Position numbers and translations under genes: made by a program. The notes under the pieces are model-generated. The model saw only the letters and a program-made list of their open reading frames with translations. It was not told where the DNA came from and searched no databases. This document shows, piece after piece, positions 13,686 to 62,013 of a stretch of 64,000 bases of DNA; position 1 is the stretch's first letter, and each line of letters opens with the position of its first letter. Source of the DNA: a virus; IMG/VR virus record IMGVR_UViG_3300049448_000712; one strand, given 5' to 3'.

Positions 13686-13811
13686 AAGCTCCTTTTGGCC
13701 CCAAGGGCCGAGTGAAGCTCTACCGTACCGAAACAGATTGCGTTTGAGAGCGGGTTGTTGGTCGATTTCTATTACAAACCGGTTACAGTGTGATAGTTGG
13801 CCGCCCCCGGC

Positions 13812-18372: not shown

Positions 18373-18398
18373 AGCTCGGTGGCGCCAAGGAGACTCTC

Positions 18399-18620: not shown

Positions 18621-18644
18621 CCCGTTCCCCCGGAGACCACCAAC

Positions 18645-18824: not shown

Positions 18825-18827
18825 CCC

Positions 18828-47813: not shown

Positions 47814-48971
47814 CTAGTAGCCGACCCACTCGCAGACGCCTGCGAACCCGACGTTGCCCGCGGTCGTCGCACCGGAGTCCGCTCCACTGCTGATCATGCC
47901 GCGCCAGATGAGCTGCTTCGTCGCCTGCGGCAGATCAGAGGCCAGCGTTCCGCCCGTCCACGTCGGGTTGACGCCCGAGCCGTTCGTGCGCGAGAGCAGC
48001 CAATGCACCACCGCCTCGTTCGGCGCCCCCCAGAACCAGCCATCGAAGGTGTACTCGACGCCACGGCACGTGAAGGGATCGCCGCCATCTGCCGGACCCA
48101 CGTCTACGCAGGTCGCCGTGCCAGCCGCGTCGTTGCTGCAGATCTGCAGATTCACCTGCGCAGCGATGTCATCACACCCGAAGTAGAAGGTGTTCGTCTG
48201 CGCGGAAGGCTGCACGGTGCCTGAAGGAGCACCGCTCGTATCTCCCCAGCCCATGTACATGGCCCACGCCGTCTTGCCGTCCCAGATGAGAGGCGACCAG
48301 CGCTCCCAAGCAACGAAGCCCAAACTCATCACCAAGGGCTCCTGTGAGGTCGTCTCGGTGATGCCGGTCCACGTGTTCACAGTCGACCCGAGCGCGTGGA
48401 ATGCGTGCCGGTGCTTGCGGATGTTGGACCCTGCGTCCCAGCCCGAGATGCCACCCGTCGCGCCGAACTGGTTGGTGTTGGTGTTGGTGCCAACGTTCAC
48501 CAGCAAGTTGCCGCCACCACCTGCAGTGCCGTCGGGGAAGTGGCACTCCATGTGAACCATGTCGGGCGTCGAGTAGACAGCGCCCTCGCCCGGCGTCAGA
48601 AACGACCAGGGCGTCGGCAGCGCAAGCACAGAGTCGATGCGCACCTGCGTCTGCGGCATCGACGCCTGTTGCGCGAAGTCGTATTCGAGGCTGCCACCAT
48701 CGGGCGGCGCGACCTCGGCGTACTCGGGCGCGTATCTCTCGTGCGTACCGTCGGAGGTCACGTTGGCGATGCCGCCGAACGTGCCGGCCTTGTTGTACTG
48801 CACCTCGGCGTTGGCGCCGCCTGGAGGGCCGCCATCACTGACGCCAGGGCCCGCCGTCGAGCCGTGCCGTGAGATGCGACCGTTCGCCTGCCCCGGCAGC
48901 GCCTGCGCGAGCGCGAACGCCGCAATGAGGAGCACACCCAGAAGCCACAATCTTCCTAGCGATAGACCCAT
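47814..48971 (-). CDS. secreted protein, paralog of the next gene
   Basis: Signal peptide MGLSLGRLWLLGVLLIAAFALAQALPGQANGRISRHG. The upstream ORF extension is Arg/His-rich junk. Confidence 0.5.
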   Translation of the reverse strand: MGLSLGRLWLLGVLLIAAFALAQALPGQANGRISRHGSTAGPGVSDGGPPGGANAEVQYNKAGTFGGIANVTSDGTHERYAPEYAEVAPPDGGSLEYDFAQQASMPQTQVRIDSVLALPTPWSFLTPGEGAVYSTPDMVHMECHFPDGTAGGGGNLLVNVGTNTNTNQFGATGGISGWDAGSNIRKHRHAFHALGSTVNTWTGITETTSQEPLVMSLGFVAWERWSPLIWDGKTAWAMYMGWGDTSGAPSGTVQPSAQTNTFYFGCDDIAAQVNLQICSNDAAGTATCVDVGPADGGDPFTCRGVEYTFDGWFWGAPNEAVVHWLLSRTNGSGVNPTWTGGTLASDLPQATKQLIWRGMISSGADSGATTAGNVGFAGVCEWVGY

Positions 48972-50419
48972 GAGATGTTCCCCAAGCTCACCGTGATGCA
49001 GTTGACATCGTTCACTCTGAGGTCGATGTCGTCGGCCGCCAATACCGTCGCAGTCGAGCACGCAACACGCGTGACGACGCCCGCCGCGACGTTGCAGGCG
49101 ATGTTGCCCGTGACGCAGAGCTGCGTGCCGCTCGACCTGTTGAAAGCCTCGACCGTGAACGTGTGCGCACCGTCCGCTCCGGCCTTCGTCGGAGTGAACG
49201 CGAGCGAGACGCCCGTCACGACGAGCCCCATCCGCGTCTCCATCACCACAGTACCGGTGCCGATGGTCTGCCCGTCGTAGTACGCGCTCATCGTCGAGGG
49301 CGCGATGAGGTTGAGCGAGTTCCGCGAGGTGACGACCTGCGCGTAGTCCGTGCCGTCGTGGTAGTACCAGTTGTGCGTGTCGACGGCGTAGCGCCAAGTC
49401 GACTCGAACGTCCCGAAGAAATACTGCCCCAGGCTCGTCGCGATGTTGGTCACGAGGGGCGGAAAATCCGCGCGCTGAAGTCCGCTGATGATGCCGAAGC
49501 CGGCCCAAGGGTCGATGAACCAGCTCGAAGCACCACCCACCAGCGGCGTGTTCTGGACCTGAACGATCAGACCGCCCTGGCGGTTCGCTGAAGGCACCAA
49601 CCCAATGTCTCCGTGCAGACCTCCGTAGTAGTAGTAGGTGCCTCCGTCCGAGAACTGGCCCACCCACGAGCCACCGTCGTACGGCGGCTTTCCACCATCC
49701 ACCATCACGGCGCTCACGTTGTCGCCAAGACGCCCTTGCAGCACGAGGTACTGCTCGGACGCGGCGCGCAGCGCTACAGCTCCGCTGCCTCGCCCCGAAG
49801 AGACCTCAAAGCTCGAGGCCGAATATTGGCTGCCTCCGAACACCGTGCCGTCGACCGTGATGCGAGCCACAGGCAGGCCGTTTTCGACTACGCCCAAAGC
49901 CACCGCCGTTCCGTCAGTGCCGGCCGGATTGCGATTGCCGTGAATCTCCCAATCGGCCCCCGGATCGCCAGCACCGCGGTTGCTCTGCGAGAACAGACCG
50001 GCGACTCCAACGGCGAACCAGTAGTCGCCGTATAAGATGTTCGCGCCGAGCACGAGATTGCCGTTGTTTACAAGCTGCTGTGTGCCGTCCCAATACGCGT
50101 ACTCGACGCCGCCCGCCTGCACCGACAGCACCTTGGCGTTCGACGTCGAGCGGGCGTTGGCCGAACCGATGATGATGTCGGGGAACCCGGTGTTGCCGGT
50201 TTGCGTGCCCAGCAGGTAGGTCGTCGTGTTCGAGTTCACCGACTCGATCAGAGGCGTCGAGACCTGCGACGCGACGAGGAGGCCACCGTCGAACCCAGAG
50301 CCTCCGCCTCCGATGCTCACCGCACGGCGTGAGACACGACCGTTACTCTGACCGGGCAGCGCCTGCGCGAGAACCACGCCGCCGACGACCAGCGCCAGAA
50401 GAACGAGGGCCGCGCGCAT
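48956..50419 (-). CDS. secreted protein (487 aa)
   Basis: Signal peptide MRAALVLLALVVGGVVLAQALPGQSNGRVSRRAVS; the mature N-terminus parallels 47814..48971. Confidence 0.5.
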   Translation of the reverse strand: MRAALVLLALVVGGVVLAQALPGQSNGRVSRRAVSIGGGGSGFDGGLLVASQVSTPLIESVNSNTTTYLLGTQTGNTGFPDIIIGSANARSTSNAKVLSVQAGGVEYAYWDGTQQLVNNGNLVLGANILYGDYWFAVGVAGLFSQSNRGAGDPGADWEIHGNRNPAGTDGTAVALGVVENGLPVARITVDGTVFGGSQYSASSFEVSSGRGSGAVALRAASEQYLVLQGRLGDNVSAVMVDGGKPPYDGGSWVGQFSDGGTYYYYGGLHGDIGLVPSANRQGGLIVQVQNTPLVGGASSWFIDPWAGFGIISGLQRADFPPLVTNIATSLGQYFFGTFESTWRYAVDTHNWYYHDGTDYAQVVTSRNSLNLIAPSTMSAYYDGQTIGTGTVVMETRMGLVVTGVSLAFTPTKAGADGAHTFTVEAFNRSSGTQLCVTGNIACNVAAGVVTRVACSTATVLAADDIDLRVNDVNCITVSLGNISWVYR

Positions 50420-50422
50420 GGC

Positions 50423-50881
50423 TTACGGCACGCATTCAGTCGAGAGGAGCGAGATGTTGCTCCCGTTGCAGATGCACCACGGCACGCCTGCGTCCTGCCG
50501 CGTGATGTTGTACGTGGCGCAGTCGCCCGTCGCGAGCGTGTCGCCGGGCGAGCCTGCAGAATAGGTCGGCTGCCCGTTGCTCTGGCAGATGCACGACGCG
50601 CCGTTGGAGTTCAGCTGCGAGTTGCAGATCTGAATCCACACCCGGTTCGCGGTGGGGACGGAGGGCACGGTGAGAACTGCGGTGCCAGCGTCGGTCACCT
50701 TCTGCGCAAGCCCCGTGCACGGAGCCGAGGTGACGTACGTCGAGCCACCGTCGCCCGAGCTCCCCACGATCTTCACCGGCCAGGGGCCCTGGTTGCCGGG
50801 CTTGCCTTGATCCGCAGTGACGACAGTGCTCGCCATGGCCGACCAACAGAAGAAAACCGCGATCACGAACACTCGTCTCAT
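50423..50881 (-). CDS. secreted Cys-rich protein
   Basis: Signal peptide MRRVFVIAVFFCWSAMASTVVTA; ten Cys. Confidence 0.45.
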   Translation of the reverse strand: MRRVFVIAVFFCWSAMASTVVTADQGKPGNQGPWPVKIVGSSGDGGSTYVTSAPCTGLAQKVTDAGTAVLTVPSVPTANRVWIQICNSQLNSNGASCICQSNGQPTYSAGSPGDTLATGDCATYNITRQDAGVPWCICNGSNISLLSTECVP

Positions 50882-51150
50882 GTGAAGACCTTTCCGAGCC
50901 AGCGATTGATGAGGAACGTCACAACGCCCGTTGTCACACCGATGGCGATGGCACGAAACGCAGCATCGCCTCCGGCGCTGTCCATGGCGGCAGTCTCGGC
51001 TCCGATGATGGAGCTCACCTCGGCAGACGGGTCACCTCCGCCGCCTCCGAGGAACTGGGCGTAGCCCTGCAGCCCGCCATGCCCCATCGACCAGCGGCGC
51101 CGACGCCGCCACTCGACGTACTGCTTCGCATTCTCGAACTGGCCGTACAT
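50878..51150 (-). CDS. small membrane protein
   Basis: C-terminal TM AIAIGVTTGVVTFLINRWL. Confidence 0.4.
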   Translation of the reverse strand: MYGQFENAKQYVEWRRRRRWSMGHGGLQGYAQFLGGGGGDPSAEVSSIIGAETAAMDSAGGDAAFRAIAIGVTTGVVTFLINRWLGKVFT

Positions 51151-52118
51151 CAGATCATCCCGTAGCGAGCGATGTCGATGTAGGCCCCGACGAGCGAGCC
51201 GCCGCTCGTGTCGAAGAGTTGCACGCCGCCATCGTCGGCGGCCAGGCGCACGAGCTCCGTTGGAGCCTCGACGACAGGGAACTCGTTGGCGAAGTTTCCG
51301 GCTGCGCCGCTGGGCGCGTACGAGCCCCAGGTGTAGTCGATGAAGCGCACGGGCGTCGCGATGACCGCGTTGTTGATGTCGAGGTCAAAGTCGTTCGAGC
51401 TCTGAATGTCGAAGCGCACCGTCGCGGGCGCAGCGAGCGTGTTCAGCCGCAGCGACATGAGGATCTTCGTCGGCCGAGAGATGGCGATGGTCGGCAGGCC
51501 CTTCTGGCTGATGGTGCCGACGCGCACGGCCTGGGTCCACGGGAAACGCAGCGGCCAGTTCTTCGGCGCGTTCGCAGGCGGCGCGGCGGGGTCGGCGATC
51601 AGCATGCGCTGGCGGTGGAACAACACCTCGGCATCACCGGGCCACGCGACGTCGGCGTCCGGCGAAGGGAAGACGTACAGCGTCGCAAGACCGCCGCCCA
51701 GCCACCCGAACGGCAGGCCCCAGTTGAGCCCGGAGAAGTTGCCCGACACGCCCCATGGCCGACCGTGCGGGCGGTAGATCTGGCCCGGCCGCAAGACGAT
51801 CGGCTGCGGCGAGGTCGTCTGCCCCGCGACGAGCGGCTGCACCGCGACGGGAGTCTGCGAGCTGGGGTGAAGCCCGAACGTGTAGCCGGGGATGTTGATC
51901 TGCTGCGCGGGCGACACGCTGTTGTTGACGATCAGCTCGTTCTGCGACTGCTGCTGCAGCGCGTTCTGCAGCCCGGCGTTGTCGTAGTAGCTCTGGAAGC
52001 CGAAGACGGTGGTGACGGAGACTCCAGGCGAACCCGAGTCGGGCAAAAGCGTGTGCTTCTGCACGACGGGTTGTCCCATGCCCTTCGCCATCGCTCTGAA
52101 ATTGGCAAACGCGGTCAT
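51150..52118 (-). CDS. hypothetical protein (structural candidate)
   Basis: Long ORF with coding GC3. Start taken at MTAFANFRAMAKG. Confidence 0.45.
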   Translation of the reverse strand: MTAFANFRAMAKGMGQPVVQKHTLLPDSGSPGVSVTTVFGFQSYYDNAGLQNALQQQSQNELIVNNSVSPAQQINIPGYTFGLHPSSQTPVAVQPLVAGQTTSPQPIVLRPGQIYRPHGRPWGVSGNFSGLNWGLPFGWLGGGLATLYVFPSPDADVAWPGDAEVLFHRQRMLIADPAAPPANAPKNWPLRFPWTQAVRVGTISQKGLPTIAISRPTKILMSLRLNTLAAPATVRFDIQSSNDFDLDINNAVIATPVRFIDYTWGSYAPSGAAGNFANEFPVVEAPTELVRLAADDGGVQLFDTSGGSLVGAYIDIARYGMI

Positions 52119-52173
52119 CAGGCCTCCAGGCCGAAATGACAGCGCCACCAGAAGTTCTAGCAGGTCTGCACGC

Positions 52174-52464
52174 CTACAGAAAGCGCTTCAGCGCGTCGAA
52201 GAACTGGAGCCCGCTAAGCACAGGCGACGCGCAGACGCCACACACTCTCACGCTGAGCGGACCGAGTTGCACCTGGGCATCTGCCGGACGCAGACCGCAC
52301 ACAGGGCAGCGTTGCTTCTTCGGCGCTCGGTGCGCCTGGAGCTCAACGACCGACAGGTCGCCGGCAGCAGGAGCCCTTGCCGACTCGCTTGGAGGAATTC
52401 GCGCCAAAGAGGCGGGGCCGAAAACGACGGGGGGCTGCTGCTTCCTCTTCGCCTTCGTCTTCAT
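52174..52464 (-). CDS. Lys-rich N-terminus, zinc-ribbon-like protein
   Basis: MKTKAKRKQQ...CPVCG...CGVC. Overlaps the 3' part of ORF 52343..52645. Confidence 0.3.
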   Translation of the reverse strand: MKTKAKRKQQPPVVFGPASLARIPPSESARAPAAGDLSVVELQAHRAPKKQRCPVCGLRPADAQVQLGPLSVRVCGVCASPVLSGLQFFDALKRFL

Positions 52465-52645
52465 CGTCGGAGCCGCCCGCGAAAAAATGCACGCCCGCCA
52501 TCGCGAGCTCGCCCAAGCCCCCGAGGAAGTGCAGCGTCGAGGCCTGCGAGTTGCCGGGCTGAACCTGAGGGGCCTGCTGCGCCTGTTGCGGCTGAGCCTG
52601 CTGGCCTTCGTACAACGGGGTGCTCGGATCGTACGGGTTTCCCAT
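52343..52645 (-). CDS. Gln/Pro-rich hypothetical protein
   Basis: Coding-like GC3 in its 5' two-thirds. The 3' third overlaps 52174..52464, so a frameshift or nested gene is possible. Confidence 0.3.
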   Translation of the reverse strand: MGNPYDPSTPLYEGQQAQPQQAQQAPQVQPGNSQASTLHFLGGLGELAMAGVHFFAGGSDDEDEGEEEAAAPRRFRPRLFGANSSKRVGKGSCCRRPVGR

Positions 52646-52661
52646 GGACCACTACCTTACA

Positions 52662-53756
52662 TCAGTTCACGTGAGCGCTGTAGTAGTTGGCCTCGTCTTG
52701 GGCACTCGTGATCCACGTGCCATCTGGCATCTGGTACGGAACGAACGACTCGCCCACGTAGGCTCCGCCGCTCGGCATCGGCAACAGGCCTCCAGTGATC
52801 GCGCCATGCTGCTGCGCCGGAGCCACATACGCGCTCTGCCGCTGCCCCATGAAATACGCCGCCACGCCGCCCAGCAGCGTTCCCACCACGCCTCCACGAA
52901 TTCCGCCGAGAAAGAAGCCCAGAGCACCGAGGCCGCCCGCCGCGACGACCGGGCTCACGCTGAACCCCGGCACCATCACCTGCTGCGTCGCACCAGGGGG
53001 CAGGAGTTGCCCCGGCGTGCTCAGCAGTTGATCGATGGACGCAGCGTCGGCTTGCTGCACCGCCTGCTCGTTCGCCTGAATGTGCGCGTCCTGGGTCTGC
53101 GCGAGCGTGTCGAAGGCCTGCTGTGCATTCGCGGCGGACGCATCTGCCTGCTTCGACACCTGCACCGCCTTCGATGCCGCAGTGTCCGCCTTGCCCTGCG
53201 CGATGGTCGCTCGAGCAGCAGCCGCAGCAGCTGCAGCCTGCGCGTCGAACGTGGGCGTCATCGTCGCATGTGAGGCTGCCTGGTCGGCCGTGAACGCCGC
53301 CGCATCAGCCTTGCGCTGCAGGTCGCTCGCGACGTCCGCGTGGACCTGCGCTGCCTGGTTGAGCTCGATCGCTTGTGCAGCCTTCACCGCCACGTGGGTG
53401 TTGAAGATGTCCTTCACAGGAGCCGGAGCCGAAACGGGCGACACCGGCTGCGGCGGCGCGGGCAGTGGCGCAACGGAAGACCCCGCCGTCAGGCTCGGGA
53501 AGAGCGACATGAGCGAGCTCGCGTCGAACATGCCCGGCACGATGCCCTTCGTCACCGGAGCACCGATGAGCTCCGGCCGAATCTGGTAGGGCGCGAACCC
53601 GGCCGGCGCTGACGGATCAGTCGACGGAGCCGCAGGCATCGACTCAGGGGGCACCAACGCATCGGTGCGAACAACCGGCACCGTCGCCGTCACGAGCGTT
53701 TTGCCGATGACCGGCAACCCGTACGCGGAGTACCGCTGGCCGTAGAACCTGCCCAT
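52662..53756 (-). CDS. Ala/Gln-rich coiled-coil protein with C-terminal Gly-rich hydrophobic segment
   Basis: Start at MGRFYGQRYSAYG. Long AQ-rich helix, then VVAAGGLGALGFFLGGIRGGVVGTLLGGVAAYFMG. Confidence 0.5.
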   Translation of the reverse strand: MGRFYGQRYSAYGLPVIGKTLVTATVPVVRTDALVPPESMPAAPSTDPSAPAGFAPYQIRPELIGAPVTKGIVPGMFDASSLMSLFPSLTAGSSVAPLPAPPQPVSPVSAPAPVKDIFNTHVAVKAAQAIELNQAAQVHADVASDLQRKADAAAFTADQAASHATMTPTFDAQAAAAAAAARATIAQGKADTAASKAVQVSKQADASAANAQQAFDTLAQTQDAHIQANEQAVQQADAASIDQLLSTPGQLLPPGATQQVMVPGFSVSPVVAAGGLGALGFFLGGIRGGVVGTLLGGVAAYFMGQRQSAYVAPAQQHGAITGGLLPMPSGGAYVGESFVPYQMPDGTWITSAQDEANYYSAHVN

Positions 53757-53922
53757 CACCGCCTCCTTCTGCTGTGCCGGCGCTTGCGGCGGGGGCACTT
53801 CGTCTTCACCTTGTGCGACGTGCGCCACAAGCACAGGCCGATGAGCGGCACCTTGAGCGCACAGCGACGGCGGGTCGCCGTACACCTGCGCGTCCGCCGT
53901 CTCGAGCTCCTCCGGCGCGTGC

Positions 53923-54327
53923 TCATCGGCGGCTCCGGCGACGGTAGCCGGCCGTCGACCGCGACTTCTTCATCGAACGAGCGATGACGCCCAGCACCAC
54001 GACGCCCCCGACGCCGATCACAACCCAGCCCCAGAGCGGAAGCCCCGGCTGCACGGCAGTCACCGTGGGCTGCACCGGGCGGCCGAAGATGTCGACCACA
54101 CCGGAGACGATCGACTTCCCCAGGCCCAGGTAGTCGCTCGCGCTGAGCCCGCTGGGCGAGCCTGCGGTCGTCTGCACGGGCGGGCTGAAGTAGTCGCCGG
54201 GCACGCCCTGCGCGACGCTGTAGCCCTGCCCCGTGTTGACGACCGGCTCCGGCGTCGTCGTCACGTACTCGATGTCGGTCGAACCAGCGGCAGGATCGTA
54301 CGGCTGGTAGTCATCACCAAAACGCAT
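53923..54327 (-). CDS. protein with C-terminal GLPLW-TM-GYRRRSRR tail
   Basis: C-terminus ...QPGLPLWGWVVIGVGGVVVLGVIARSMKKSRSTAGYRRRSRR. Confidence 0.5.
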   Translation of the reverse strand: MRFGDDYQPYDPAAGSTDIEYVTTTPEPVVNTGQGYSVAQGVPGDYFSPPVQTTAGSPSGLSASDYLGLGKSIVSGVVDIFGRPVQPTVTAVQPGLPLWGWVVIGVGGVVVLGVIARSMKKSRSTAGYRRRSRR

Positions 54328-54340
54328 TGTGCTTCTCCTT

Positions 54341-54640
54341 TTATCGTACTGCTCGAATCACGAGAACTGCAGCCACCGCGCCGCCAACGACGAGCCACAG
54401 CGGTGGCCCCTGATCAACGGGCACGAGCACCGGCTGCGGAGCCAGAGCTCGCTGCGTCGCGTTGGCGAAGACGTTCACCCAGAAGCTCGGCTGCTGGTAG
54501 TACGGCACCTGCTGCGGAGGCGGGTCCGCGTGCATGTAGCCGTCCGGCCACAGGTAGCCCTGCGGCAGAGGCGGCGGCGCCGCATCGACCAGCGGGGGCG
54601 ACGTGAGATCGTCGCCGAAGGTGAACGACCTGAAGCTCAC
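54341..54640 (-). CDS. Pro-rich protein with C-terminal GPPLW-TM
   Basis: C-terminus ...DQGPPLWLVVGGAVAAVLVIRAVR. Confidence 0.4.
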   Translation of the reverse strand: MSFRSFTFGDDLTSPPLVDAAPPPLPQGYLWPDGYMHADPPPQQVPYYQQPSFWVNVFANATQRALAPQPVLVPVDQGPPLWLVVGGAVAAVLVIRAVR

Positions 54641-55119
54641 CGCTGCGCCTTCCGCTTGTAGCCCTCGAGCCGTCGCTCAGGCTCGAACTCGTACTTGTCG
54701 CTCTTGTCGCCGAAGCGGCCCATGCCGCGCGGACGGCAGCTCGCCATTCGCGACGAGCTCGAGCTCGAGCTCCGACCGAGACCGCCGACGCGGAGATGCG
54801 ACATCGTCTTCGTCATGCGCCGGAGGTTGTGCTTCGGATCCTCCGACTCGGGGTAGTCGTACGCGTCGATCTGCTTGGGCTTCTGGTAGTGCCGCCAGAT
54901 CAGGTACAGCGCGACCGCGCCGCCCGCGAGCCCGAGAATCATCAGCGGCGACATCGACGGCGGGCTCACCTGCTGCGCGAGGGCCTGAGCGGCAGCCGGG
55001 TTCTGCTGCTGGTACGTCGCCCATGCGCTCATCACGGTCTGATCGCTCGCGTTCGGCTGAATGACGCCGATGGCGGAGAGCGCAGCACGGAGGTTTGCAA
55101 CCAAAGTCGGATCCATCAT
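54637..55119 (-). CDS. membrane protein with central TM and basic Ser-rich tail
   Basis: SPPSMSPLMILGLAGGAVALYLIW, then a Lys/Arg-rich region. Confidence 0.4.
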   Translation of the reverse strand: MMDPTLVANLRAALSAIGVIQPNASDQTVMSAWATYQQQNPAAAQALAQQVSPPSMSPLMILGLAGGAVALYLIWRHYQKPKQIDAYDYPESEDPKHNLRRMTKTMSHLRVGGLGRSSSSSSSRMASCRPRGMGRFGDKSDKYEFEPERRLEGYKRKAQR

Positions 55120-55649
55120 CGTCTCCCTGAAACGCGCTTCTTCGCGCTGCGGAACACCCGCGACAGCCCGGCGACCTCGAAGAGAATCGGAGCAAGGACG
55201 ACGGCTCCGACCACCACCGCGCCCGCGATGAACAGCGGCTTCAACTTGGCGAGCGTGTCATCGGGCGGGCTGACGTACGGGCTCTGCGCAGGCGGCACGT
55301 AGGCGTTCTTCTGAGCTCCCACCGAGTCGAGCAGCCCCTGCATCGAGTCCGAAGCAGTGTCGAGCGTCGCCGTAACCTGCGCGCAGGCATCGTCACTCTC
55401 GATGACAAGGTTCTGGTTGACGACGTTGTCGTACGTGTCTTGCGCGGCCACCGCGACAGGGTGCCCTTCGTTCGCCGTGAACCAGTGCGTGACGAGCAGC
55501 TTCGCCGCCGTCGCCTGGTCGAGCAGCGACTTCAGCCGCGCCTGCGCGTTGCGCACGTCGTCGCAGGCGTAGGTGAGACCGAAAGCGCCGAAGCCACCCT
55601 CGGCGGTCGGCGAGCGAAACCTCGGGTCTGGGAAGAGCATCGTCGGCAT
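55116..55649 (-). CDS. protein with N-terminal MPTMLFPDPRFRSPTA motif and C-terminal TM plus basic tail
   Basis: Shares its first 16 residues with 58862..59560. Confidence 0.45.
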   Translation of the reverse strand: MPTMLFPDPRFRSPTAEGGFGAFGLTYACDDVRNAQARLKSLLDQATAAKLLVTHWFTANEGHPVAVAAQDTYDNVVNQNLVIESDDACAQVTATLDTASDSMQGLLDSVGAQKNAYVPPAQSPYVSPPDDTLAKLKPLFIAGAVVVGAVVLAPILFEVAGLSRVFRSAKKRVSGRR

Positions 55650-55651
55650 GG

Positions 55652-56680
55652 TCAGAACTTGTTGTTCGGGTAGAGCCGCGGGTCGAGCTTCGGGAGGTTC
55701 GGCCTCGACGGCGCCATCGGCACCTGGGTGGGAAGCTCGCGCTGCGCGTAGGGCACGTTGCGCCAGCCGATCATGCTGAGCGCAGGAGAAGCAGACACGG
55801 TCGTGCCCGTGTACGCGCTCCACAGCCGCTCGAGAGTGAACGTGTAGAACCCCTTCGGCGGGAGCACCGCGTTCACCGTCCACGCGAAGTCGTTGAAGTT
55901 GAAGAGATGCGCGAACGGCGTCGGGTCTCTGACGAGGATGTTGTTGAACGAATCCTGCGCCGTGACGAGCGTGCCCGTCGTGGTGATCCCGCTGACGGAG
56001 TCGACGTTTTCTGAGGCGAGCGTCATGTACGAGAACTCGTCGAGATGCTCTTGCACGAGCAACTGGCCGAGGAAGCGCTGCACATGCAGGTCTTCGTTCC
56101 ACGGGTTGTAGATGTCCGACGGAGTCGACACCTGCACATCGTCCGACACGCCGGCCTGAAGGAACGGCGGAACGAACGCGGTGGCCCACGGCAATTGCAG
56201 CGTTCTCGGAGTCGGTGTGCCCTTCGGCAGCGGCCGGACCGCGTAGCAGATCGTCACCACCTGATCGACTTGCGCGTGCCCCGAGAGCGGGAAGGTCGGC
56301 GCGTAGTAGACGATCGGCCGCAGAAACTCGCGCGCCGGGATGAACAGCGGCTTGGGGAGCTTCCACGTGAAGACGGTCTGACCGCCCGTCGTGGCCGGAA
56401 ACTGCGCCCTGTAGTTGAGGTTCTTGCCGAAAAGCCCGATGGGCACGTTGCCCGACGTGAGAGGAAGCGAGCCCAGAAGCAGCTTCAGGTAGATGCTCGA
56501 GCCCCAGTACCCGTAGGTCTGCTGGCCTCCAGGGTTGGTCGGGAGACGAACGCGAACTTCATCGAGCCACATCGGCGCCTGAAAGGGGTTCTCGAGCCGG
56601 GTGGGATCAGCCAGTCCCACCTCGCCGCCGCCCGAGGGAAGCGTGATCTGCGCCTGCAGCAACTGCGGAGAGTAGCTCAT
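55652..56680 (-). CDS. paralog A of a three-gene family (342 aa)
   Basis: Shares motifs with B and C: W(K/R)LPxP(L/M)(F/Y), KVQRF-like, LPPKG, and a C-terminal IGWR. Confidence 0.5.
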   Translation of the reverse strand: MSYSPQLLQAQITLPSGGGEVGLADPTRLENPFQAPMWLDEVRVRLPTNPGGQQTYGYWGSSIYLKLLLGSLPLTSGNVPIGLFGKNLNYRAQFPATTGGQTVFTWKLPKPLFIPAREFLRPIVYYAPTFPLSGHAQVDQVVTICYAVRPLPKGTPTPRTLQLPWATAFVPPFLQAGVSDDVQVSTPSDIYNPWNEDLHVQRFLGQLLVQEHLDEFSYMTLASENVDSVSGITTTGTLVTAQDSFNNILVRDPTPFAHLFNFNDFAWTVNAVLPPKGFYTFTLERLWSAYTGTTVSASPALSMIGWRNVPYAQRELPTQVPMAPSRPNLPKLDPRLYPNNKF

Positions 56681-57624
56681 AGCAGTTCGTCCCTCGTGCC
56701 GATGATCGCCATGTGGAGCTGCTCCGTCGACACCATGTTGAAAGCGCGCACGTCGTACTGCCCCTTCGGCGGAAGAATGGTGTCGACGGTCCACGCGCAC
56801 CGCGGCGCGTCGGCGACATCGTTGGGCCCGGTCAGATCATTGACCATCTTCCCGCCCCACGAGTCGAACATCTGGATCTGCATCGTGCTGACGAAGCTGC
56901 CAGGCGTGGTGGTGCTCGCAGGCGTGAGCGCCTGCTTGAGATCGAAAGCGCCAATCTGGGCGTTGAGCACGCGCGCAGTGATGCGCTGCACCTTGATCTC
57001 CTTGTCGAACGGGTTGAACAGGTTGTACTCGTTCGACTGCTGGTAGCCGTTGCCGAACGTCGTCACCCACGGAGCGACGTACGGGACCGCGATGACGCGA
57101 GGCAACGGAGCGCTGGTCGGCACCGTGTAGCCCGCGTACGTGACCTGCACCGTGATGTCGCCAGCGGGGACGCCGAGACTGTTCGGGTCGACGCGCTGGA
57201 AGGTCGACTGCAGCACCTGCCCGGCCTCGACGTAGAGCGGCTCAGGCAACCTCCAGCGGTAGGCAGAGAACGCCTGCCCGCTCGCAGAATCGTACGTCTC
57301 GTCTTCCGAGTTGGCGTTGACGCCGAGGTCCATCAGCGGGCTCAGCAGCCACACCGGAACGAAGTCGCGCATCAAGTAGTAGCGACCGATCTGCAGTTTG
57401 GTCCAGATCGCCGCGCCCAACGCGAGTGTGGCCGCGTTGGTGGCCTTCATCACCCAGCGGATCTCCGTGATGATGATCGGCTTGCGGTACGGGTACGTGA
57501 GCTGAAGGCTGCTCGGCACCGCAGTCTTGTTGAGCGACACGTTCGCGGAAGCCGACAGCAGCACAGGCGAGCGACGATCAAACGTCGGTGAGACAGCGAC
57601 CGGCTTGTTCGGAACGGGGCTCAC
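56677..57624 (-). CDS. paralog B of the three-gene family (315 aa)
   Basis: GTG start overlaps the TGA of paralog C (GTGA). The upstream ORF extension is out-of-frame junk. Confidence 0.5.
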   Translation of the reverse strand: MSPVPNKPVAVSPTFDRRSPVLLSASANVSLNKTAVPSSLQLTYPYRKPIIITEIRWVMKATNAATLALGAAIWTKLQIGRYYLMRDFVPVWLLSPLMDLGVNANSEDETYDSASGQAFSAYRWRLPEPLYVEAGQVLQSTFQRVDPNSLGVPAGDITVQVTYAGYTVPTSAPLPRVIAVPYVAPWVTTFGNGYQQSNEYNLFNPFDKEIKVQRITARVLNAQIGAFDLKQALTPASTTTPGSFVSTMQIQMFDSWGGKMVNDLTGPNDVADAPRCAWTVDTILPPKGQYDVRAFNMVSTEQLHMAIIGTRDELL

Positions 57625-58703
57625 AACGCCACCTCTCTCCACCCAATCAACGAGATGAAAGCCTGGCCCTGAATTCCGGTGTAGCCGAAGCCACCGATGC
57701 CAGGCAGCGCGGCGGACTTCAAGAGCGCGAGGTAATACGCCCCCGGGTCGAGCTCGACGCCGGAGCCCTCGAGCTCCCAGGACCGCGTGAGACCTGAGAA
57801 CACCGAAGTGAAGGGCGTGTAGTAGCGCACGGTGGGACGACCGTACGAATCCATCATGCGAACGGTGAGACCGTCCTCTCGAAACGCGGCACCGAACGTG
57901 GGTCCTTCGTACGCGTGATCGCCTGACTGAATGACGATGGCCCGGCCGACGAAGCGCTGAACCTTGAGTATCTGCGCAGCGCCCTCGAAACCGGTCGAGT
58001 CGTTGACGAGGTCCACGTGACCCGACTGATCCGTCCCCGCCGTGGTGAGCGGGTTGAAGACCTTCGACGTGAACGCGCTCGCCCACGGCAGGCACACGAC
58101 CTTGGGCTTGATGAAGAGCGAACGCGCCGACATGCTGAAGCGCACGTTGATGGGGAGCGCGATGAGCCCCGTGTGAGTGAAGTTGGCGATCACGGTCGCA
58201 CCGGCCGGAACGAACATCGGCCGCGGCAGGCGCCACGAGAACGTGTTGTAGAGATTGAGCGACGCGAGAGTCGCGTACTCCGCCGTGAGATTCTCCGCTC
58301 GTCCGAGCGAAAACACAGGCACCGCGCCGTTCGTGAGCTTGTAGTTGCCCAGCTTCAGTTCGACGGCGATCGATGCACCCAGGACCGCGTCCAGCGCGAA
58401 GCCGCTGTTGCCCAGCGACAGCAATTGAAACTTGAGCTCCGTCACCTCCATGTCCTGCCCCATGGGGTTGGTCATCACCGAGGGCTGAACGCTCCCTGAC
58501 GTGCCAGGCTGAAGCAGCAGCGAACCAGACAGGTGGATCGGCGCGGCGGGCGGCGGCTGGTGGTAGACGGGGTTCTGGTTGTACCCGGGCAGCGGGCGAG
58601 GCAACGCGCCTTGCGGAACGATGAAAGGCATCTCGTCAACCCCCCCACATGCGGAGACCGCAGCAGCGGCCATCAACACATCTCGACGCCGAAGATTCGA
58701 CAC
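57621..58703 (-). CDS. paralog C of the three-gene family; predicted Tat-type lipoprotein
   Basis: GTG start with GGAGGAG 10 nt upstream. N-terminus SNLRRRDVLMAAAAVSAC has a twin-Arg segment plus a lipobox Cys. Confidence 0.5.
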   Translation of the reverse strand: MSNLRRRDVLMAAAAVSACGGVDEMPFIVPQGALPRPLPGYNQNPVYHQPPPAAPIHLSGSLLLQPGTSGSVQPSVMTNPMGQDMEVTELKFQLLSLGNSGFALDAVLGASIAVELKLGNYKLTNGAVPVFSLGRAENLTAEYATLASLNLYNTFSWRLPRPMFVPAGATVIANFTHTGLIALPINVRFSMSARSLFIKPKVVCLPWASAFTSKVFNPLTTAGTDQSGHVDLVNDSTGFEGAAQILKVQRFVGRAIVIQSGDHAYEGPTFGAAFREDGLTVRMMDSYGRPTVRYYTPFTSVFSGLTRSWELEGSGVELDPGAYYLALLKSAALPGIGGFGYTGIQGQAFISLIGWREVAL

Positions 58704-58861
58704 GCACTTGCAACTCCTCCTGGGCTCACCGCTCCAGGGACTGCGAGGAAAAACTCCCCTTGAACTTCAGGCCGCCCGCCAGAGGGGGGAAAGGCGGGCG
58801 GCCTCGAGCCCGAGGTGAACGAGAGCGTGGCGCTAGCCCCTCGTTCTCTCGAGCAAACCGA

Positions 58862-59560
58862 TTACGCGCGGACGTCGGCCATCACGCCGCACCACAGGTT
58901 GCACCAGACGAGCGAGCTCTGGCCGACACCCGTGGAGACGCTGAACGTCAGCGACACGCCGCCCGCCGTGCCGAACTCGACCTCGAGCTGGTCGGTGCGC
59001 GCGGCCGGCAGGAACACCTTGAGCCGGCGCCCACCGTTCGGCCAGCCGTTGTTGAGGAACGACACGAGCGAGTTGTTCTGCGTGGTCGAAACCGCGCCGA
59101 ACGTCGCGCCCGGGGCCGGGAAGAACTGCGTCGGACCTTCGATCTGCTTCGTTCCGCTGATGCGGAAGATCAGGAAGGTCTTCGCCTGCATCTCCGAGAC
59201 CTCCTGCTGCCCCATGCCGTACGTGTTGAGCACGCCGACGCTGGAGTAGTAGCCAGTCTCGTACCCGATCCCGATGCTGCGGATCGAGAGCTCACCGATG
59301 GCCGAACCCACCTCGCCGGCCTTGCCGAGGTTGGTGTTCAGCTTCGTCATCGTGAGCAGGTGCTGAGCGGTCGGCGCGATGCCGGCGCCCATCAGGCGCG
59401 GAATCGACTGACCCTCGGGCACCGTGAAGATCTTCTGGGTGCCCGAGCCACCGTGGCCGACGACGAGGGACGAGTAGATGTTCTCGTCGCGACCACCGGA
59501 CTGGCCGGCAGCGGCGGTGGGAGAACGGAAGCGGGGATCGGGAAACAGCATCTGAGGCAT
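58862..59560 (-). CDS. protein with N-terminal MPQMLFPDPRFRSPTA motif (232 aa)
   Basis: Same N-terminal motif as 55116..55649; Gly/Ser/Thr-rich. Confidence 0.45.
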   Translation of the reverse strand: MPQMLFPDPRFRSPTAAAGQSGGRDENIYSSLVVGHGGSGTQKIFTVPEGQSIPRLMGAGIAPTAQHLLTMTKLNTNLGKAGEVGSAIGELSIRSIGIGYETGYYSSVGVLNTYGMGQQEVSEMQAKTFLIFRISGTKQIEGPTQFFPAPGATFGAVSTTQNNSLVSFLNNGWPNGGRRLKVFLPAARTDQLEVEFGTAGGVSLTFSVSTGVGQSSLVWCNLWCGVMADVRA

Positions 59561-59677
59561 GTGGTGCTCCTTCATGCGCCATGGGTCTGGCGCGGGGGTT
59601 GGACTGCGACGAGCTCAAAAGTGCTGAAGGGCGGCGGCCAGCTCACCTCCGCCGCCCCGAATGGCTGTGGAACTGCG

Positions 59678-60232
59678 TTACGGCGCCGGGAAGAGGCCGT
59701 CCTCGTTCTCATCGCCGAAGCCCTGCAGCCGGCCGATGCGAGCGAGGTTGGTGTTCGGGTTGTTGAAGATCGGCCCGCCCATGCCCGCGGGCAGGGTGCG
59801 CGGCGCGAAGCCGTAGCCCTGCATGCGGGGGTTCATGAACAGCGGAGCTCCGAAGCCCGCCGTCGCGGCAGTGCCCGGAGACGCAGCAGCGACCAGACCC
59901 TGAACGACGCCGAAGAGCCACACGCCGGCTCCTGCGAGCGCCGCCCCGAGCGCGTGACCAGCCGCCCGAGTCGGGTTCTTCTTCTTCTGGGCGAGGTACA
60001 GCACCCCGCCCGTGGTGAGGCCGCCCACAACCGGGCTGCCAGAGGCGACAGCCGAGGGGATGGGCAGACCGGCCGCGATGGCCTTCGAGGCGCCGATCTG
60101 GAGACCGACGCTGCCGATGGCGCCCAACAGGCCGCCGACGACAACATCAAGAGGCTTCACCGAGCTCGGCATCGAAAGCCTGCCGAGGCCGGGAAAGCGG
60201 ACGAGACCGCGGTAGTGACGACGACGAGCCAT
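59678..60232 (-). CDS. Gly/Ala-rich membrane protein with PRMQGYG repeats
   Basis: N-terminal MARRRHYRG, several Gly-rich hydrophobic segments, and a C-terminal GFGAPLFMNPRMQGYGFAPRTLPAGMGGPIFNNPN. Confidence 0.45.
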   Translation of the reverse strand: MARRRHYRGLVRFPGLGRLSMPSSVKPLDVVVGGLLGAIGSVGLQIGASKAIAAGLPIPSAVASGSPVVGGLTTGGVLYLAQKKKNPTRAAGHALGAALAGAGVWLFGVVQGLVAAASPGTAATAGFGAPLFMNPRMQGYGFAPRTLPAGMGGPIFNNPNTNLARIGRLQGFGDENEDGLFPAP

Positions 60233-60290
60233 GTTTCTTTTCTCCTTGTGATGACTGCGTGAAAACTTCGGTTGAGGGTGGGACTGCGAA

Positions 60291-60410
60291 TTACCGACGC
60301 GAGCGGCGACCCGGGCGCTTCTTGCGGCAGATCCGGCGACCGCGCGGGTGCTTCAACTTGCCGTACCGGCAGTGAGTCTTCTTCGAGTGACGACGCTTCC
60401 TGCGAGCCAT
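60291..60410 (-). CDS. small highly basic protein, copy 3 of the C(K/R)YGKLKHPRGRRIC family (39 aa)
   Basis: RBS GGAGAAG before the ATG. Translation MARRKRRHSKKTHCRYGKLKHPRGRRICRKKRPGRRSRR. Not in the ORF track (below 60 aa). Confidence 0.4.
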   Translation of the reverse strand: MARRKRRHSKKTHCRYGKLKHPRGRRICRKKRPGRRSRR

Positions 60411-60449
60411 GTTGCTTCTCCTTCGTGAACTTCGGGGGAACTGCGACGA

Positions 60450-60929
60450 CTACTTCCGCGACTTGCGACCACGCTTGAGGTTCTTCCTCATGCACGCCTG
60501 GTAAGAGCCCTTCCGCTTTCCGCGCGAGCTCCGCGCGCACTTCTTGGCGACCTTCTTGAAGCGCGACTGCGCCTTGGTGTTGCGACCCTTCTTCACGTGG
60601 TACCCCTTCCGTTTGAGTTTGCGAGTGAGACGTCCGCTCTCGGTCGGAGGTCCGTACGAGCCGCGGCTCGAGTACAGCGGCTCGACGTAGTAGGGGCGCC
60701 GGCCGTACGAGCCCATGCCCGCGGGCATCGTGCGCGGAGCGAAGCCGTAGCTGCTCGGCATCTCGCGCGGGTCGAACCCGTAGCCCTGCACGCGCGGGTT
60801 CTGAAAGAGCGGAGCTCCGTACCGCTGCATCCGCGGGTTCTGAAAGAGCGGAGCTCCGTAGCGCCGGGACGAACGACGCGAGGGCCGACGACCCATGCCT
60901 TCAAAAACAGCGATGCGAGTGCGGCTCAT
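60450..60929 (-). CDS. extremely basic protein with GAPLFQNPR(M/V)Q(R/G)YG repeats (candidate nucleic-acid-condensing protein)
   Basis: Start at MSRTRIAVFEGMGRR. Two tandem GAPLFQNPRxQxYG repeats and a C-terminal third that is more than 40% Lys/Arg. Confidence 0.45.
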   Translation of the reverse strand: MSRTRIAVFEGMGRRPSRRSSRRYGAPLFQNPRMQRYGAPLFQNPRVQGYGFDPREMPSSYGFAPRTMPAGMGSYGRRPYYVEPLYSSRGSYGPPTESGRLTRKLKRKGYHVKKGRNTKAQSRFKKVAKKCARSSRGKRKGSYQACMRKNLKRGRKSRK

Positions 60930-61303
60930 CGACGTGCTCTCCTGTTTCTCCGGTGGTAGCCGGACATCTTCTTCGCGGCAGGCGGCTTGAGCGCGGCGAC
61001 AACGAGCAGCGCGCCAGCGAGGCCGGCTCCAACAAGCAGCACCATGCGAAGCGTCGACTGCTGCTCCGCCTGCTGCATGGCGACAGCCTGGGCCTGAATC
61101 TGTGCCTCGGCCTCTTGCGCCTGGGCCTGGGCGATCGGCTTGTCGACGAAGACGCCCTTGAGGAGATCCCAGGGCGAGGCCTTCTGCACGAGGTTCGCGC
61201 CTGCGTTGAGCAGATCGGACGCCCAGTCGCCGTAGTGACGAAAACCACTGAGCGACTTGAGCTGCGCGGGGAACTCGCGCTGCGTGTAGAACTGGACGCT
61301 CAT
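60926..61303 (-). CDS. protein with C-terminal TM-GYHRRNRRARR tail
   Basis: C-terminus ...MVLLVGAGLAGALLVVAALKPPAAKKMSGYHRRNRRARR; ATGA overlap. Confidence 0.45.
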   Translation of the reverse strand: MSVQFYTQREFPAQLKSLSGFRHYGDWASDLLNAGANLVQKASPWDLLKGVFVDKPIAQAQAQEAEAQIQAQAVAMQQAEQQSTLRMVLLVGAGLAGALLVVAALKPPAAKKMSGYHRRNRRARR

Positions 61304-61470
61304 CGACGGAGCACCGAGTAAGCGAGGCCGCCCAGCAGCGCGACCCCGGCAATGGCACCGAGCACCACGTACGGGCTGGTCGGCACCCGGTAGAGATCAG
61401 GGTTCGGCGCGCTCACGTTGACCGGTGCAGTCGCGGCGCCCAGAACGCTGGAGAAGATCGTGCCCCACAT
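61300..61470 (-). CDS. small membrane protein (56 aa) with C-terminal TM plus RR
   Basis: Translation MWGTIFSSVLGAATAPVNVSAPNPDLYRVPTSPYVVLGAIAGVALLGGLAYSVLRR. Its stop overlaps the next ATG (ATGA). Not in the ORF track. Confidence 0.35.
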   Translation of the reverse strand: MWGTIFSSVLGAATAPVNVSAPNPDLYRVPTSPYVVLGAIAGVALLGGLAYSVLRR

Positions 61471-61473
61471 GGC

Positions 61474-62013
61474 TCACTCCCCCGTGATCGCTGCGGTGAG
61501 GGTGAACCCGCCAGGAGGCTCCCAGCCGGGGTACGACTCTTCGACGGTGGTATCGAGCGCGATCCAATCGTTGGGATCGAGCTTGGGGAACGCGACGATC
61601 GGATAGACGTGCGTGTACTCGCCCTTCTTCTTCCCCCATGCGCGAGCCCCGGTGACGAATCCCAGCGAGCCCAACAGCGCCATGATGAGCGCAGTGGAGT
61701 CGTCGCAGTCGCCGCCGTTGTAGCCATCGGCGAGCTGGCGCAGCATCCGCGAAGGCGAAGAGAAGAAGTCGGCCCAGCGCGGGTCGCTCATGTATCGCAG
61801 GCCTTTCTCGAGGCCCTTCACCCGGTCGTCGCCGTTCTTCACCGCGTTGAAAATCGCGTGAATCTCGCACTCGTCGTCGCGCGCATCGCAGTCGCCCGTG
61901 ATGGCGAGCGCCGCGTTCCGCACGAGAGGATCGACGGTCGACTTCTCAGCGAGCTCCGCAAGCTTCTGCAGCGCTGCTTTCTGATCAGCGACCTCGAGAA
62001 CTGAAACGCGCAC
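61474..62013 (-). CDS. transglutaminase-like cysteine protease/peptidase domain protein
   Basis: Cys in GGDCDDSTALIMALLGSLG, His in GEYTHVYPIV and Asp in WIALDTT are spaced like the transglutaminase-like Cys-His-Asp core. Confidence 0.5.
   Translation of the reverse strand: MRVSVLEVADQKAALQKLAELAEKSTVDPLVRNAALAITGDCDARDDECEIHAIFNAVKNGDDRVKGLEKGLRYMSDPRWADFFSSPSRMLRQLADGYNGGDCDDSTALIMALLGSLGFVTGARAWGKKKGEYTHVYPIVAFPKLDPNDWIALDTTVEESYPGWEPPGGFTLTAAITGE

Follow-up and report, generated by a model that had tools for sequence, protein, structure and literature searches.

Why do small membrane proteins with unrelated N-terminal domains end in the same Arg-rich C-terminus? This question is raised by positions 53923-61470 of a 64,000-nt stretch of viral DNA (IMG/VR virus record IMGVR_UViG_3300049448_000712; the whole stretch is hereafter the window). 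An initial annotation had listed here five open reading frames (ORFs) for proteins with a transmembrane (TM) helix and a basic tail, one for a very small basic protein and one for an ultra-basic protein. All seven are found on the minus strand with the C-termini quoted for them (53923-54327, 54341-54640, 55116-55649, 60291-60410, 60450-60929, 60926-61303 and 61300-61470). A GC content of 0.80-0.87 at third codon positions supports the coding frame of four of the five TM ORFs, and coding by 55116-55649, 60291-60410 and 60450-60929 is supported by orthologs in related contigs, which all seven ORFs except 54341-54640 possess. Loci on related contigs are labeled L001-L030, and L026 and L001 come from one genome. 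The tails carry a specific peptide signature, and those of this block belong to the likely structural module of a putative double jelly-roll (DJR) virus, in which they may serve as membrane-anchored DNA-binding elements.

A C-terminal signature in two gene clusters

Four window proteins end in [S/T]-[V/T/-]-[A/S]-G-Y-[R/H]-R-...-R-R-COOH, two of them encoded on the plus strand in cluster I (18828-19568 and 19918-20253) and two on the minus strand in cluster II (53923-54327 and 60926-61303). A fifth protein (54637-55119), missed by the initial annotation, has its TM helix in mid-protein and ends in the variant EGYKRKAQR. When all 64 kb are translated in six frames (1245 ORFs of at least 25 aa), GY[RKH][RK] occurs exactly five times, in these five genes of the two clusters and always no more than 12 residues from the C-terminus. 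TM helices are predicted (Kyte-Doolittle values of 1.6-2.7 in 19-residue windows) for 61300-61470, 60926-61303, 55116-55649, 54637-55119, 54341-54640 and 53923-54327 as well as for three cluster I genes. The proposal of two clusters of single-pass proteins with polybasic tails, each adjoining small basic proteins of the CKYG type, thus holds. The common layout ascribed to all five TM ORFs of cluster II is borne out by the motif in 53923-54327 and 60926-61303, but not in 54341-54640 (RAVR) and 61300-61470 (RR), which have merely a generic TM plus stop-transfer end with 1-2 basic residues, nor in 55116-55649, whose window copy is degenerate (RVSGRR) relative to orthologs with the full tail.

Alignment of 27 distinct tails from related contigs yielded S(13)-V(13)-A(18)-G(25)-Y(27)-R(23)-R(21), mostly followed by a terminal -RSRR; since this set was chosen by a pattern requiring Tyr, only the S, V/T, A and G next to it count as independent evidence. 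The signature can be written S-[V/T]-A-G-Y-R-R-x(0-4)-R-S-R-R-COOH. The likeness of the C-termini could have been one of composition, as the initial annotation allowed, but S, V/T, A, G and Y are conserved in position. Within orthologous groups, the segment from the motif to the end shows 65-70% mean pairwise identity versus 31-43% for the N-domain and TM helix, and in the 14 orthologs of 53923-54327 (group C) it reaches 70% versus 35-40% for the rest of the protein. The Ala, Gly, Tyr and Arg codons of the tails vary synonymously between copies, which indicates selection at the peptide level. In L025, a distant relative with 68% GC, the TM proteins end in RKR or KSR, so that GC content does not account for the long tail. 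This control and the six-frame control together rule out a pure GC or composition effect.

The tail occurs on membrane and soluble basic proteins

The motif is attached to at least four unrelated N-domains, namely those of group A (60926-61303), group B (55116-55649 and its orthologs), group C and cluster I. In L026, three TM proteins end in [S/A]V[A/G]GYRRR(K)(R)SRR, and a TM-less 60-aa CKWGKLKNPVGRRIC protein, which is a soluble basic protein of the CKYG type, ends in SGVAGYRRRSRR. Conversely, the CKHGKLKHRIGRRIC protein at L026 8163-8393 joins a basic CKHG domain to a C-terminal TM helix. RRSRR-COOH also ends the protein encoded at 60291-60410 and several small basic proteins of other genomes. 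Since the same ending is found on soluble proteins of which about half the residues are Arg or Lys, the tail is not a stop-transfer device. Judged from these sequences, it is a portable module common to membrane and soluble basic proteins.

The small basic proteins have a Lys/Arg content of 54% (60291-60410), 44% (18399-18620) and 46% (18645-18824), so that very Arg/Lys-rich, protamine-like small proteins are indeed encoded in the structural module. The third copy of the CKYG-type protein that had been placed at 60291-60410 is present, but it reads CRYGKLKHPRGRRIC, one residue off the quoted CKYG. CKYG proteins were found in the window's clade only, the ultra-basic protein in all clades.

A second portable motif, (M)LFPDPRFRSPTA, forms the N-terminus of a 237-aa protein (58862-59575) and of several proteins with no other relationship, of which some have a TM helix (55116-55649; L026 3412-3834 and 8593-8805; L006 12677-13528). 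It may be a capsid-targeting or processing signal.

Cluster I and cluster II are separate loci

Cluster I, on the plus strand, comprises two tandem CKYGKLKHPRGRRIC proteins of 73 and 59 aa (18399-18620 and 18645-18824), a tail protein of 246 aa (18828-19568, GPPW-TM-RRHKAASVSGYRRRRSHR), a small 117-aa TM protein with PSW-TM-SRRKRRR and no GY motif (19565-19918) and a second tail protein of 111 aa (19918-20253, GPPW-TM-RRRKKSSTAGYRRRARR). The two clusters had been suggested to be copies of a duplicated module. However, DNA similarity between 18300-20300 and 53800-61500 is limited to pieces of 20-88 nt. The CKYG genes of cluster I share 77% nucleotide identity with 60291-60410 over 88 nt and 90% over 40 nt, one TM segment shows 77% over 64 nt, a 20-nt match has E = 0.004, and the tails of 19918-20253 and 53923-54327 are 85% identical over 39 nt. 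The N-domains of the two clusters are unrelated in sequence comparison. A segmental duplication from cluster I to cluster II is ruled out by the shortness of these similarities.

Cluster I has its own orthologs, including P0081-P0083, which are 40-55% identical to 18828-19568, and its own conserved gene order in L026 and L027, which argues for two separate loci. On this comparison, the clusters are two old, separate conserved loci sharing a portable C-terminal cassette. The L026 equivalent of cluster I is even richer and comes after the same glycosyltransferase/methyltransferase genes, and that of L027 lies downstream of a family A DNA polymerase gene. Upstream of cluster I in the window, 13738-17628 encodes a sugar/secondary-metabolite modification cluster with a TylF-type O-methyltransferase, a family 2 glycosyltransferase and, judged by eye, hexapeptide acetyltransferase-like and acyl carrier protein-like proteins. 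The cluster I equivalents of L026 (6932-7300) and L027 (6309-6827) also encode a PG_binding_1 protein with a C-terminal TM helix and basic end, beside which no catalytic lysin domain was detected. The window has no PG_binding_1 domain at the position of cluster I.

The cluster II genes lie in the likely structural module of a DJR virus

The block had been described as devoted to tailed proteins. At its center, however, are three consecutive DJR capsid-type paralogs (55652-58703, about 25-29% mutual identity), which mark it as a structural module, and the trio is found in all related contigs. The gene order across 50423-62013 is kept in L001, L002, L004, L006, L007 and others, about 15 contigs. 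Paralog 1, with a 47-sequence alignment, gave a confident AlphaFold2 model (predicted local distance difference test score, pLDDT, 85.6). In a Foldseek search, this model matched the major capsid protein of the tectivirus Wip1 (E = 7e-9), PR772/PRD1, PM2 and STIV (TM-scores of 0.47-0.50) and PBCV-1 (TM-score of 0.51). The cellular DJR enzymes (DUF2961/GH172) had similar Z and E-values at a lower TM-score of 0.33-0.38, and since they score similarly, the fold alone is no proof of a capsid role; cellular DJR homologs have been described (PMC8812541). Paralog 2 is 25% identical to paralog 3 (E = 2e-18), paralog 3 is 27% identical to paralog 1 (E = 5e-19), and the paralog 1 query matches the DJR2-type genes of relatives with E = 1e-15 to 1e-17.

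Going by the modeled fold, the DJR proteins would form the capsid, and the trio suggests a heterotrimeric capsomer. A candidate packaging P-loop ATPase of the HerA/FtsK superfamily (608 aa, with Walker A) is encoded on the plus strand at 4595-6421, far from the capsid genes. It matches PDB HerA chains (E = 6e-7 to 4e-6) and phrog_2666, annotated as 'terminase large subunit' (E = 4.6e-14), and may act in genome packaging. From this gene content, we conclude that 50423-62013 is the likely structural module of a DJR-type virus of bacteria.

A bacterial host is indicated by the overlapping genes coupled through Shine-Dalgarno (SD) sequences, by a twin-arginine translocation (Tat)/lipobox signal on DJR paralog 1 and by PG_binding_1 in relatives. 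L025 (NZ_JBAZTU010000009.1, 75 kb), the sole match among 185,579 species genomes, carries the module of a distant clade and is binned as a Sphingomonas metagenome-assembled genome (MAG). This is a weak host hint, as whole viral contigs bin unreliably.

Proposed role and orientation of the tail

With a probability of roughly one half, we consider the tails to be membrane-anchored DNA-binding elements that, together with the free basic proteins, neutralize and tether a large genome. The tail family would consist of small single-pass proteins of the virion membrane, with unrelated N-domains and a common C-terminal module in which a few stop-transfer basic residues are followed by S-[V/T]-A-G-Y-R-R and then by R-S-R-R-COOH. 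The last four codons, when written AGG-AGY-CGN-CGA-TGA, double as the SD sequence and start for the next gene. The tails would lie on the DNA side of the membrane, where they, the CKYG proteins and the ultra-basic protein may bind and neutralize the genome and tether it to the membrane. The location in the virion membrane, the side that the tails face and the binding of DNA are inferred from sequence features.

The tails have charges of +6 to +10, and the N-domains have charges of -7 in group B, -6 in group C and 0 to -4 in group A and cluster I. Since a CKYG-type domain can be fused to a TM helix, the CKYG domains and the tails are expected on the same positive face. In group B, a single TM helix separates the N-terminal MLFPDPRFRSPTA from the Arg tail, and the two therefore face opposite sides. 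MLFPDPRFRSPTA in group B is limited to the window/L006 subclade and is otherwise the invariant N-terminus of the 237-aa protein. If MLFPDPRFRSPTA marks the capsid side, the Arg tail would be on the DNA side.

Several points weigh against DNA-binding tails. A PRD1-like assembly combined with the positive-inside rule would turn the tails to the capsid rather than to the DNA, and N-out insertion of N-domains of 100-200 residues without a signal peptide is unusual. In addition, three of the five listed cluster II members (55116-55649, 54341-54640 and 61300-61470) are without the motif in this genome, and an embedded ribosome-binding site explains part of the terminal conservation.

The orientation problem leads directly to another explanation, possible though unlikely, in which the tail is an outward signal for virion incorporation or capsid docking. 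Bound to the floor of the DJR capsomer or to the anionic outer leaflet, it would recruit membrane patches and cargo, including the soluble CKYG proteins, to the particle, and DNA binding would be incidental. The positive-inside rule places the tails in the cytoplasm, and in the PRD1 assembly scheme it is the cytoplasmic membrane face that contacts the capsid. The exact -RSRR-COOH and the invariant G-Y resemble a peptide ligand for a protein pocket, and the tag is found on unrelated proteins, one of them soluble. Tails within a genome are also more alike than orthologous tails across genomes (STAGY in the window versus SVAGY in L001/L026), as expected under co-evolution with one receptor. However, the DJR paralogs have a net charge of 0 to +1 and thus present no obvious acidic partner, and for the accompanying proteins with 45-54% Lys/Arg it is difficult to see a role other than polyanion binding. 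Group B, moreover, bears across the membrane from its tail the second, N-terminal motif in common with the 237-aa protein.

Dual coding in the last tail codons

The R-S-R-R codons of the tail, in the form AGG-AGY-CGN-CGA-TGA, include an SD sequence and, overlapping the stop, the start codon of the gene that follows. Window instances are 19553-19568, 53923-53940 and 60926-60943, with many at other loci; in both 18828-19568 and 60926-61303 (ATGA), the stop overlaps the start of the next gene and the tail codons contain AGGAG. Of 39 ORF ends that bear the motif, 33 have a stop overlapping ATG or GTG (ATGA or GTGA), and in 29 of the 39, a GGAG core lies inside the R-S codons, 10-13 nt upstream of the overlapping start. 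All 21 tails with an overlapping start encode R-S as [A/C]GG-AGY (AGG-AGY in 16, CGG-AGY in five), although AGG accounts for 3.6% of Arg codons in background genes.

These observations fit the view that the tail is a by-product, in which a stop-transfer cluster and a 3' cassette (AGGAGYCGNCGATGA) provide the ribosome-binding site and start of the coupled gene. Tandem duplication, in a genome rich in GC and Arg, would have spread this cassette, and its peptide would be functionless; the 85% DNA identity of intragenome tails over 39 nt is in line with this. On the other hand, ten proteins without an overlapping start (two tail proteins and eight small basic proteins) retain the ending RRSRR (RRSKR in one of them), and where no start overlaps, R-S is encoded by CGS-AGC or CGS-TCG. 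Among these is 60291-60410, whose ending is encoded as CGC-CGC-TCG-CGT-CGG-TAA without an embedded ribosome-binding site. Since the ending is kept without the overlap, the last four residues act as a peptide and as an on-demand ribosome-binding site, and the tail as a pure ribosome-binding-site artefact is ruled out. Furthermore, S-V/T-A-G-Y-R-R lies upstream of the SD sequence and is synonymously variable, in each orthologous group no other segment is as well conserved as the motif, and a distant relative of equal GC is without it. A functionless by-product is thus distinctly unlikely. The same tail codons clearly carry both a peptide motif and a signal for translational coupling.

Other possible assembly routes and functions

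DJR paralog 1 bears at its N-terminus (~58620-58703) a canonical Tat motif and a lipobox (MSNLRRRDVLMAAAAVSACGG). Of 47 paralog 1 homologs, 25 have a Tat motif, RR.[FLIVMA][LIVMFA], among their first 15 residues (for example KRREFLK and SRRKFLS), and 21 of these also have a lipobox Cys. A conserved Met follows just after this signal, and most other gene calls start there. A predicted export and lipidation signal on a capsid-type protein is unexpected. It could reflect an unprecedented route, to which we give only a slim chance, in which the capsid assembles at the periplasmic face and budding encloses a genome condensed in the cytoplasm. DJR paralog 1 would be exported by its Tat/lipoprotein signal with paralogs 2 and 3 hitch-hiking, the downstream fiber-like proteins would use their Sec-type signals, and the tail proteins would insert N-out and C-in. 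The genome, condensed by the CKYG and ultra-basic proteins, would be held at the cytoplasmic face by the AGYRR..RSRR tails before budding. If true, a DJR virus of bacteria would have a protein-condensed core like that of adenoviruses and would assemble by a new route.

The tailed proteins, those of cluster I above all, might instead serve lysis or entry as holin-, pinholin- or spanin-like proteins or as PRD1-type DNA-delivery proteins, in which case the charged C-terminus would be a regulatory tail of the kind usual in holins. A small size, a TM helix and a highly charged basic C-terminus are typical of holins. A PG_binding_1 protein lies in the cluster I equivalents of L026 and L027, and 61300-61470 has a faint PHROG match to 'membrane DNA delivery' (E = 0.045). 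We regard this role as very unlikely, given that holin, endolysin and spanin matches were absent in Pfam, PHROGs and NCBIfam, that each genome has 5-8 tail or TM paralogs, and that the cluster II members are interleaved and translationally coupled with the DJR genes. The same tail is also present on a TM-less basic protein, and N-domains of 100-200 residues are atypical of holins.

Finally, P-x-W, the TM helix and the basic tail could form a sorting or processing signal, or V-A-G-Y|R could be cleaved by the Cys-His-Asp peptidase of the module to release a polybasic peptide, as with adenovirus pVIc and Mu. The tripartite layout resembles sortase, exosortase and rhombosortase signals, NCBIfam LPXTG_anchor scores 19.7 bits (cutoff 15.9) on 19918-20253, several -CTERM models match faintly, a candidate peptidase heads the operon, and [V/T/M/L]-A-G-Y loosely recalls the adenain site (M/I/L)-X-G-X, as a lead only. 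This is extremely unlikely, because the LPXTG_anchor match, partial and seen in one of ten proteins, covers the TM and basic part (model positions 10-34) with no LPXTG, PEP or GG motif, the -CTERM matches stay below their NCBIfam cutoffs, the tail proteins are without an N-terminal signal peptide or hydrophobic signal, a Pfam scan of the 30 larger ORFs revealed neither a sortase nor an exosortase, group A is without P-x-W, the motif also occurs on a soluble protein, and the catalytic order C-H-D is papain/transglutaminase-like rather than adenain-like.

Gene content of the module

The module genes from 52662 to 62013 lie on the minus strand. The first, 61474-62013, encodes a 179-aa candidate transglutaminase-like cysteine peptidase with invariant Cys103/His135/Asp154, and its orthologs at nine loci show 51-73% identity. 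Four of ten family members have weak Pfam Transglut_core matches (best E = 0.036) and some orthologs weak CEP76-peptidase matches in Pfam; the family profile gave only chance-level matches against PDB sequences. The protein is a candidate maturation or lytic cysteine peptidase. The next ORF (61300-61470) encodes 56 aa with a generic C-terminal TM helix ending in RR, without the tail motif, and has orthologs in L004 and L005.

The group A tail protein (60926-61303, 125 aa) consists of a coiled-coil-like Q/A-rich N-domain, a TM helix and KPPAAKKMSGYHRRNRRARR, with the C-terminus ...KKMSGYHRRNRRARR. Its eight orthologs end in ..[VS][AGS]GY[RH]..RSRR, except those of L023/L024 (..RSRRSH), and the window copy itself ends in ..RARR. 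It is followed by the ultra-basic protein (60450-60929, 159 aa, net charge +39) with an N-terminal RIAVFEGMG motif and GAPLFQNPRMQ repeats, whose last 53 residues contain two Cys and 45% Lys/Arg, in agreement with the more than 40% stated before for its C-terminal third. Orthologs of this protein occur in all clades, including the distant L019-L021 and L025, and all begin M..RIA[IM].[ED]G. The CRYGKLKHPRGRRIC protein (60291-60410) is 39 aa long, and relatives have 1-3 tandem homologs in its place. A 184-aa protein (59678-60232) combines a basic N-terminus, two TM segments and C-terminal GAPLFMNPRMQGYGFAPR repeats common to 60450-60929. The repeats of these two proteins, G-A-P-L-F-x-N-P-R-M-Q-G-Y-G-F-A-P-R-T-x-P-A-G-M-G, are 59% identical over 37 aa (E = 5e-8), and the 184-aa protein has the conserved C-terminus GDENEDGLFPAP-COOH. 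The 237-aa protein (58862-59575) is soluble and beta-rich with the N-terminal MLFPDPRFRSPTA motif, probably starts at 59560 and shows the highest conservation of all lineage genes (80-85% identity); its single-sequence AlphaFold2 model was uninformative (pLDDT 33.5).

The DJR paralogs follow in the order paralog 1 (57621-58703, 360 aa, twin-arginine motif and lipobox in RRDVLMAAAAVSACGG), paralog 2 (56677-57624, 315 aa, with a GTG start that overlaps the upstream stop) and paralog 3 (55652-56680, 342 aa). Refined starts are GTG for 56677-57624 and ATG for 55116-55649 and 60450-60929.

The group B tail protein (55116-55649, 177 aa) comprises the N-terminal MLFPDPRFRSPTA, an acidic N-domain (-7), a TM helix and the degenerate tail RVFRSAKKRVSGRR. 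Its orthologs end in GFRGYRRRRSRR in L006 and in AGYRRRR or AGYRRRSRR in L001, L003 and L007. Group D (54637-55119, 160 aa) has its TM helix at residues 56-74, after which the last 86 residues carry a charge of +10 and end in YEFEPERRLEGYKRKAQR, and its orthologs end in ..YEFEPE.RLEG[YF][RK]R... The 99-aa Pro-rich protein of 54341-54640 (GTG start, GPPLW-TM-RAVR) is generic, has no motif and no clear orthologs. The group C tail protein (53923-54327, 134 aa) has an acidic N-domain (-6) with a VVDIFGRPV motif, then PLW-TM and RSMKKSRSTAGYRRRSRR.

The next ORF (52662-53885, 407 aa) encodes an Ala/Gln-rich protein with a Gly-rich TM helix and probably starts at M44 (53756). Its orthologs end in GFGYRRRRR (L001), VAYYRR (L002) and IAFYRR (L007), and the window copy is without the tail. 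A gap of ~166 nt (53757-53922) lies between 53923-54327 and this probable start; the L001 orthologs overlap by ATGA, and the ATGA that ends 53923-54327 may be a relic of a former overlap. Sec-type signal peptides are found in 50423-50881 and 48956-50419 and also in L002 17472-19625. Several proteins with such signals have (T/A)-x-Q-G-K-P-G-x-x-G-(P/S)-W-P-V directly after the signal, in multiple paralogous copies downstream of the module.

Elsewhere, the window encodes an N6/N4 methylase, MT-A70, a Mom-like protein, ThyX, a deoxynucleoside monophosphate kinase and a tyrosine integrase; these modification, nucleotide and integrase genes are among 42-1061, 2586-3278, 36399-37049, 7939-9087, 9792-10769 and 29895-30626. 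Three DNA methyltransferase-type proteins are encoded in all.

Relatives and database searches

A database search with DJR paralog 1 (57621-58703) returned 73 homologs with 41-52% identity, many on contigs of 71-89 kb. Lake sediment and Hainich groundwater (0.1 um fraction) were the source of many contigs. Against Pfam and PHROGs, ten module proteins gave no match except a low-complexity tail-fiber PHROG for 52662-53885, and Pfam, PHROGs and NCBIfam returned nothing meaningful for the small proteins, so that no curated family fits. Neither megablast nor tblastn found a match among 50,697 phage records, INPHARED had none for the lineage, and neither IMG/VR scans with DJR paralog 1 alone and then with alignment A1 nor scans of genome contigs with alignment A1 found any. 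The 237-aa protein identified just one MAG contig (L025) and one IMG/VR contig (L028). The exact DNA pattern for GYRRRRSRR-stop had 11 matches in 2.9 million IMG/VR contigs, one of them a genuine lineage member (L030). The lineage is thus nearly absent from IMG/VR, with L028 and the fragment L030 only. A literature search found no description of the lineage or the motif, and the lineage appears undescribed. The tail signature is a cheap marker for finding further members.

Comparison with known systems

Among known proteins, the nearest kind is the set of small proteins in the internal membrane of viruses of the PRD1, PM2 and STIV types. As in PRD1/Bam35 (Tectiviridae), PM2 (Corticoviridae) and STIV (Turriviridae), many small TM proteins adjoin DJR genes, the neighbors have the DJR fold and the genome encodes a HerA/FtsK-type ATPase. 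To our knowledge, neither the AGYRR..RSRR signature nor protamine-like companions are known in phages of this type. The module differs further in having three DJR paralogs rather than one, a Tat/lipobox signal on one of them and proteins without sequence similarity to any PHROG or Pfam family. The lineage contigs span 61-89 kb, whereas 7-18 kb is reported for prokaryotic DJR viruses (PMC5894146), which had been regarded as uniformly small; the lineage is four to five times larger. It has a triplicated capsid-type protein and is almost invisible to viral databases. If such a large genome is packed in a membrane vesicle, anchored and free Arg-rich modules offer a concrete and testable answer to how this might be achieved.

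For a TM helix with a basic tail that binds the genome, the coat proteins of Inoviridae would be the best functional precedent by analogy. M13 pVIII (with a leader) and Pf3 coat (without one) insert N-out and C-in, and their basic tails touch the DNA inside the particle. Like the tail proteins, they have an acidic N-part, one TM helix and a basic C-tail. However, there is no homology, the proteins described here are 100-250 aa long with long N-domains, their tails are Arg-rich rather than Lys-rich and carry the GY motif, and the context is an icosahedral DJR-type virus instead of a filament. The layout of a short motif, a TM helix and an Arg-rich C-terminal cluster also recalls LPXTG/sortase and PEP-CTERM/exosortase signals, in which the conserved motif comes before the TM helix and not after it, and which do not share the occurrence on a TM-less protein.

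The free basic proteins are comparable to adenovirus VII, Mu/pX and pVIc and to protamines in being very short proteins with 45-54% Lys/Arg encoded in a structural module. Their Arg/Ser-rich C-termini (RRSRR) resemble those of protamines, and a short basic C-terminal peptide common to several putative virion proteins is reminiscent of adenovirus-type core proteins. They differ from both in having no sequence similarity, an apparently bacterial host and a polycation that is partly anchored to a membrane helix. Should the tails and small basic proteins prove to be core proteins, adenovirus-type genome condensation would have a counterpart in bacterial viruses, with a bearing on the evolution of the DJR virus kingdom.

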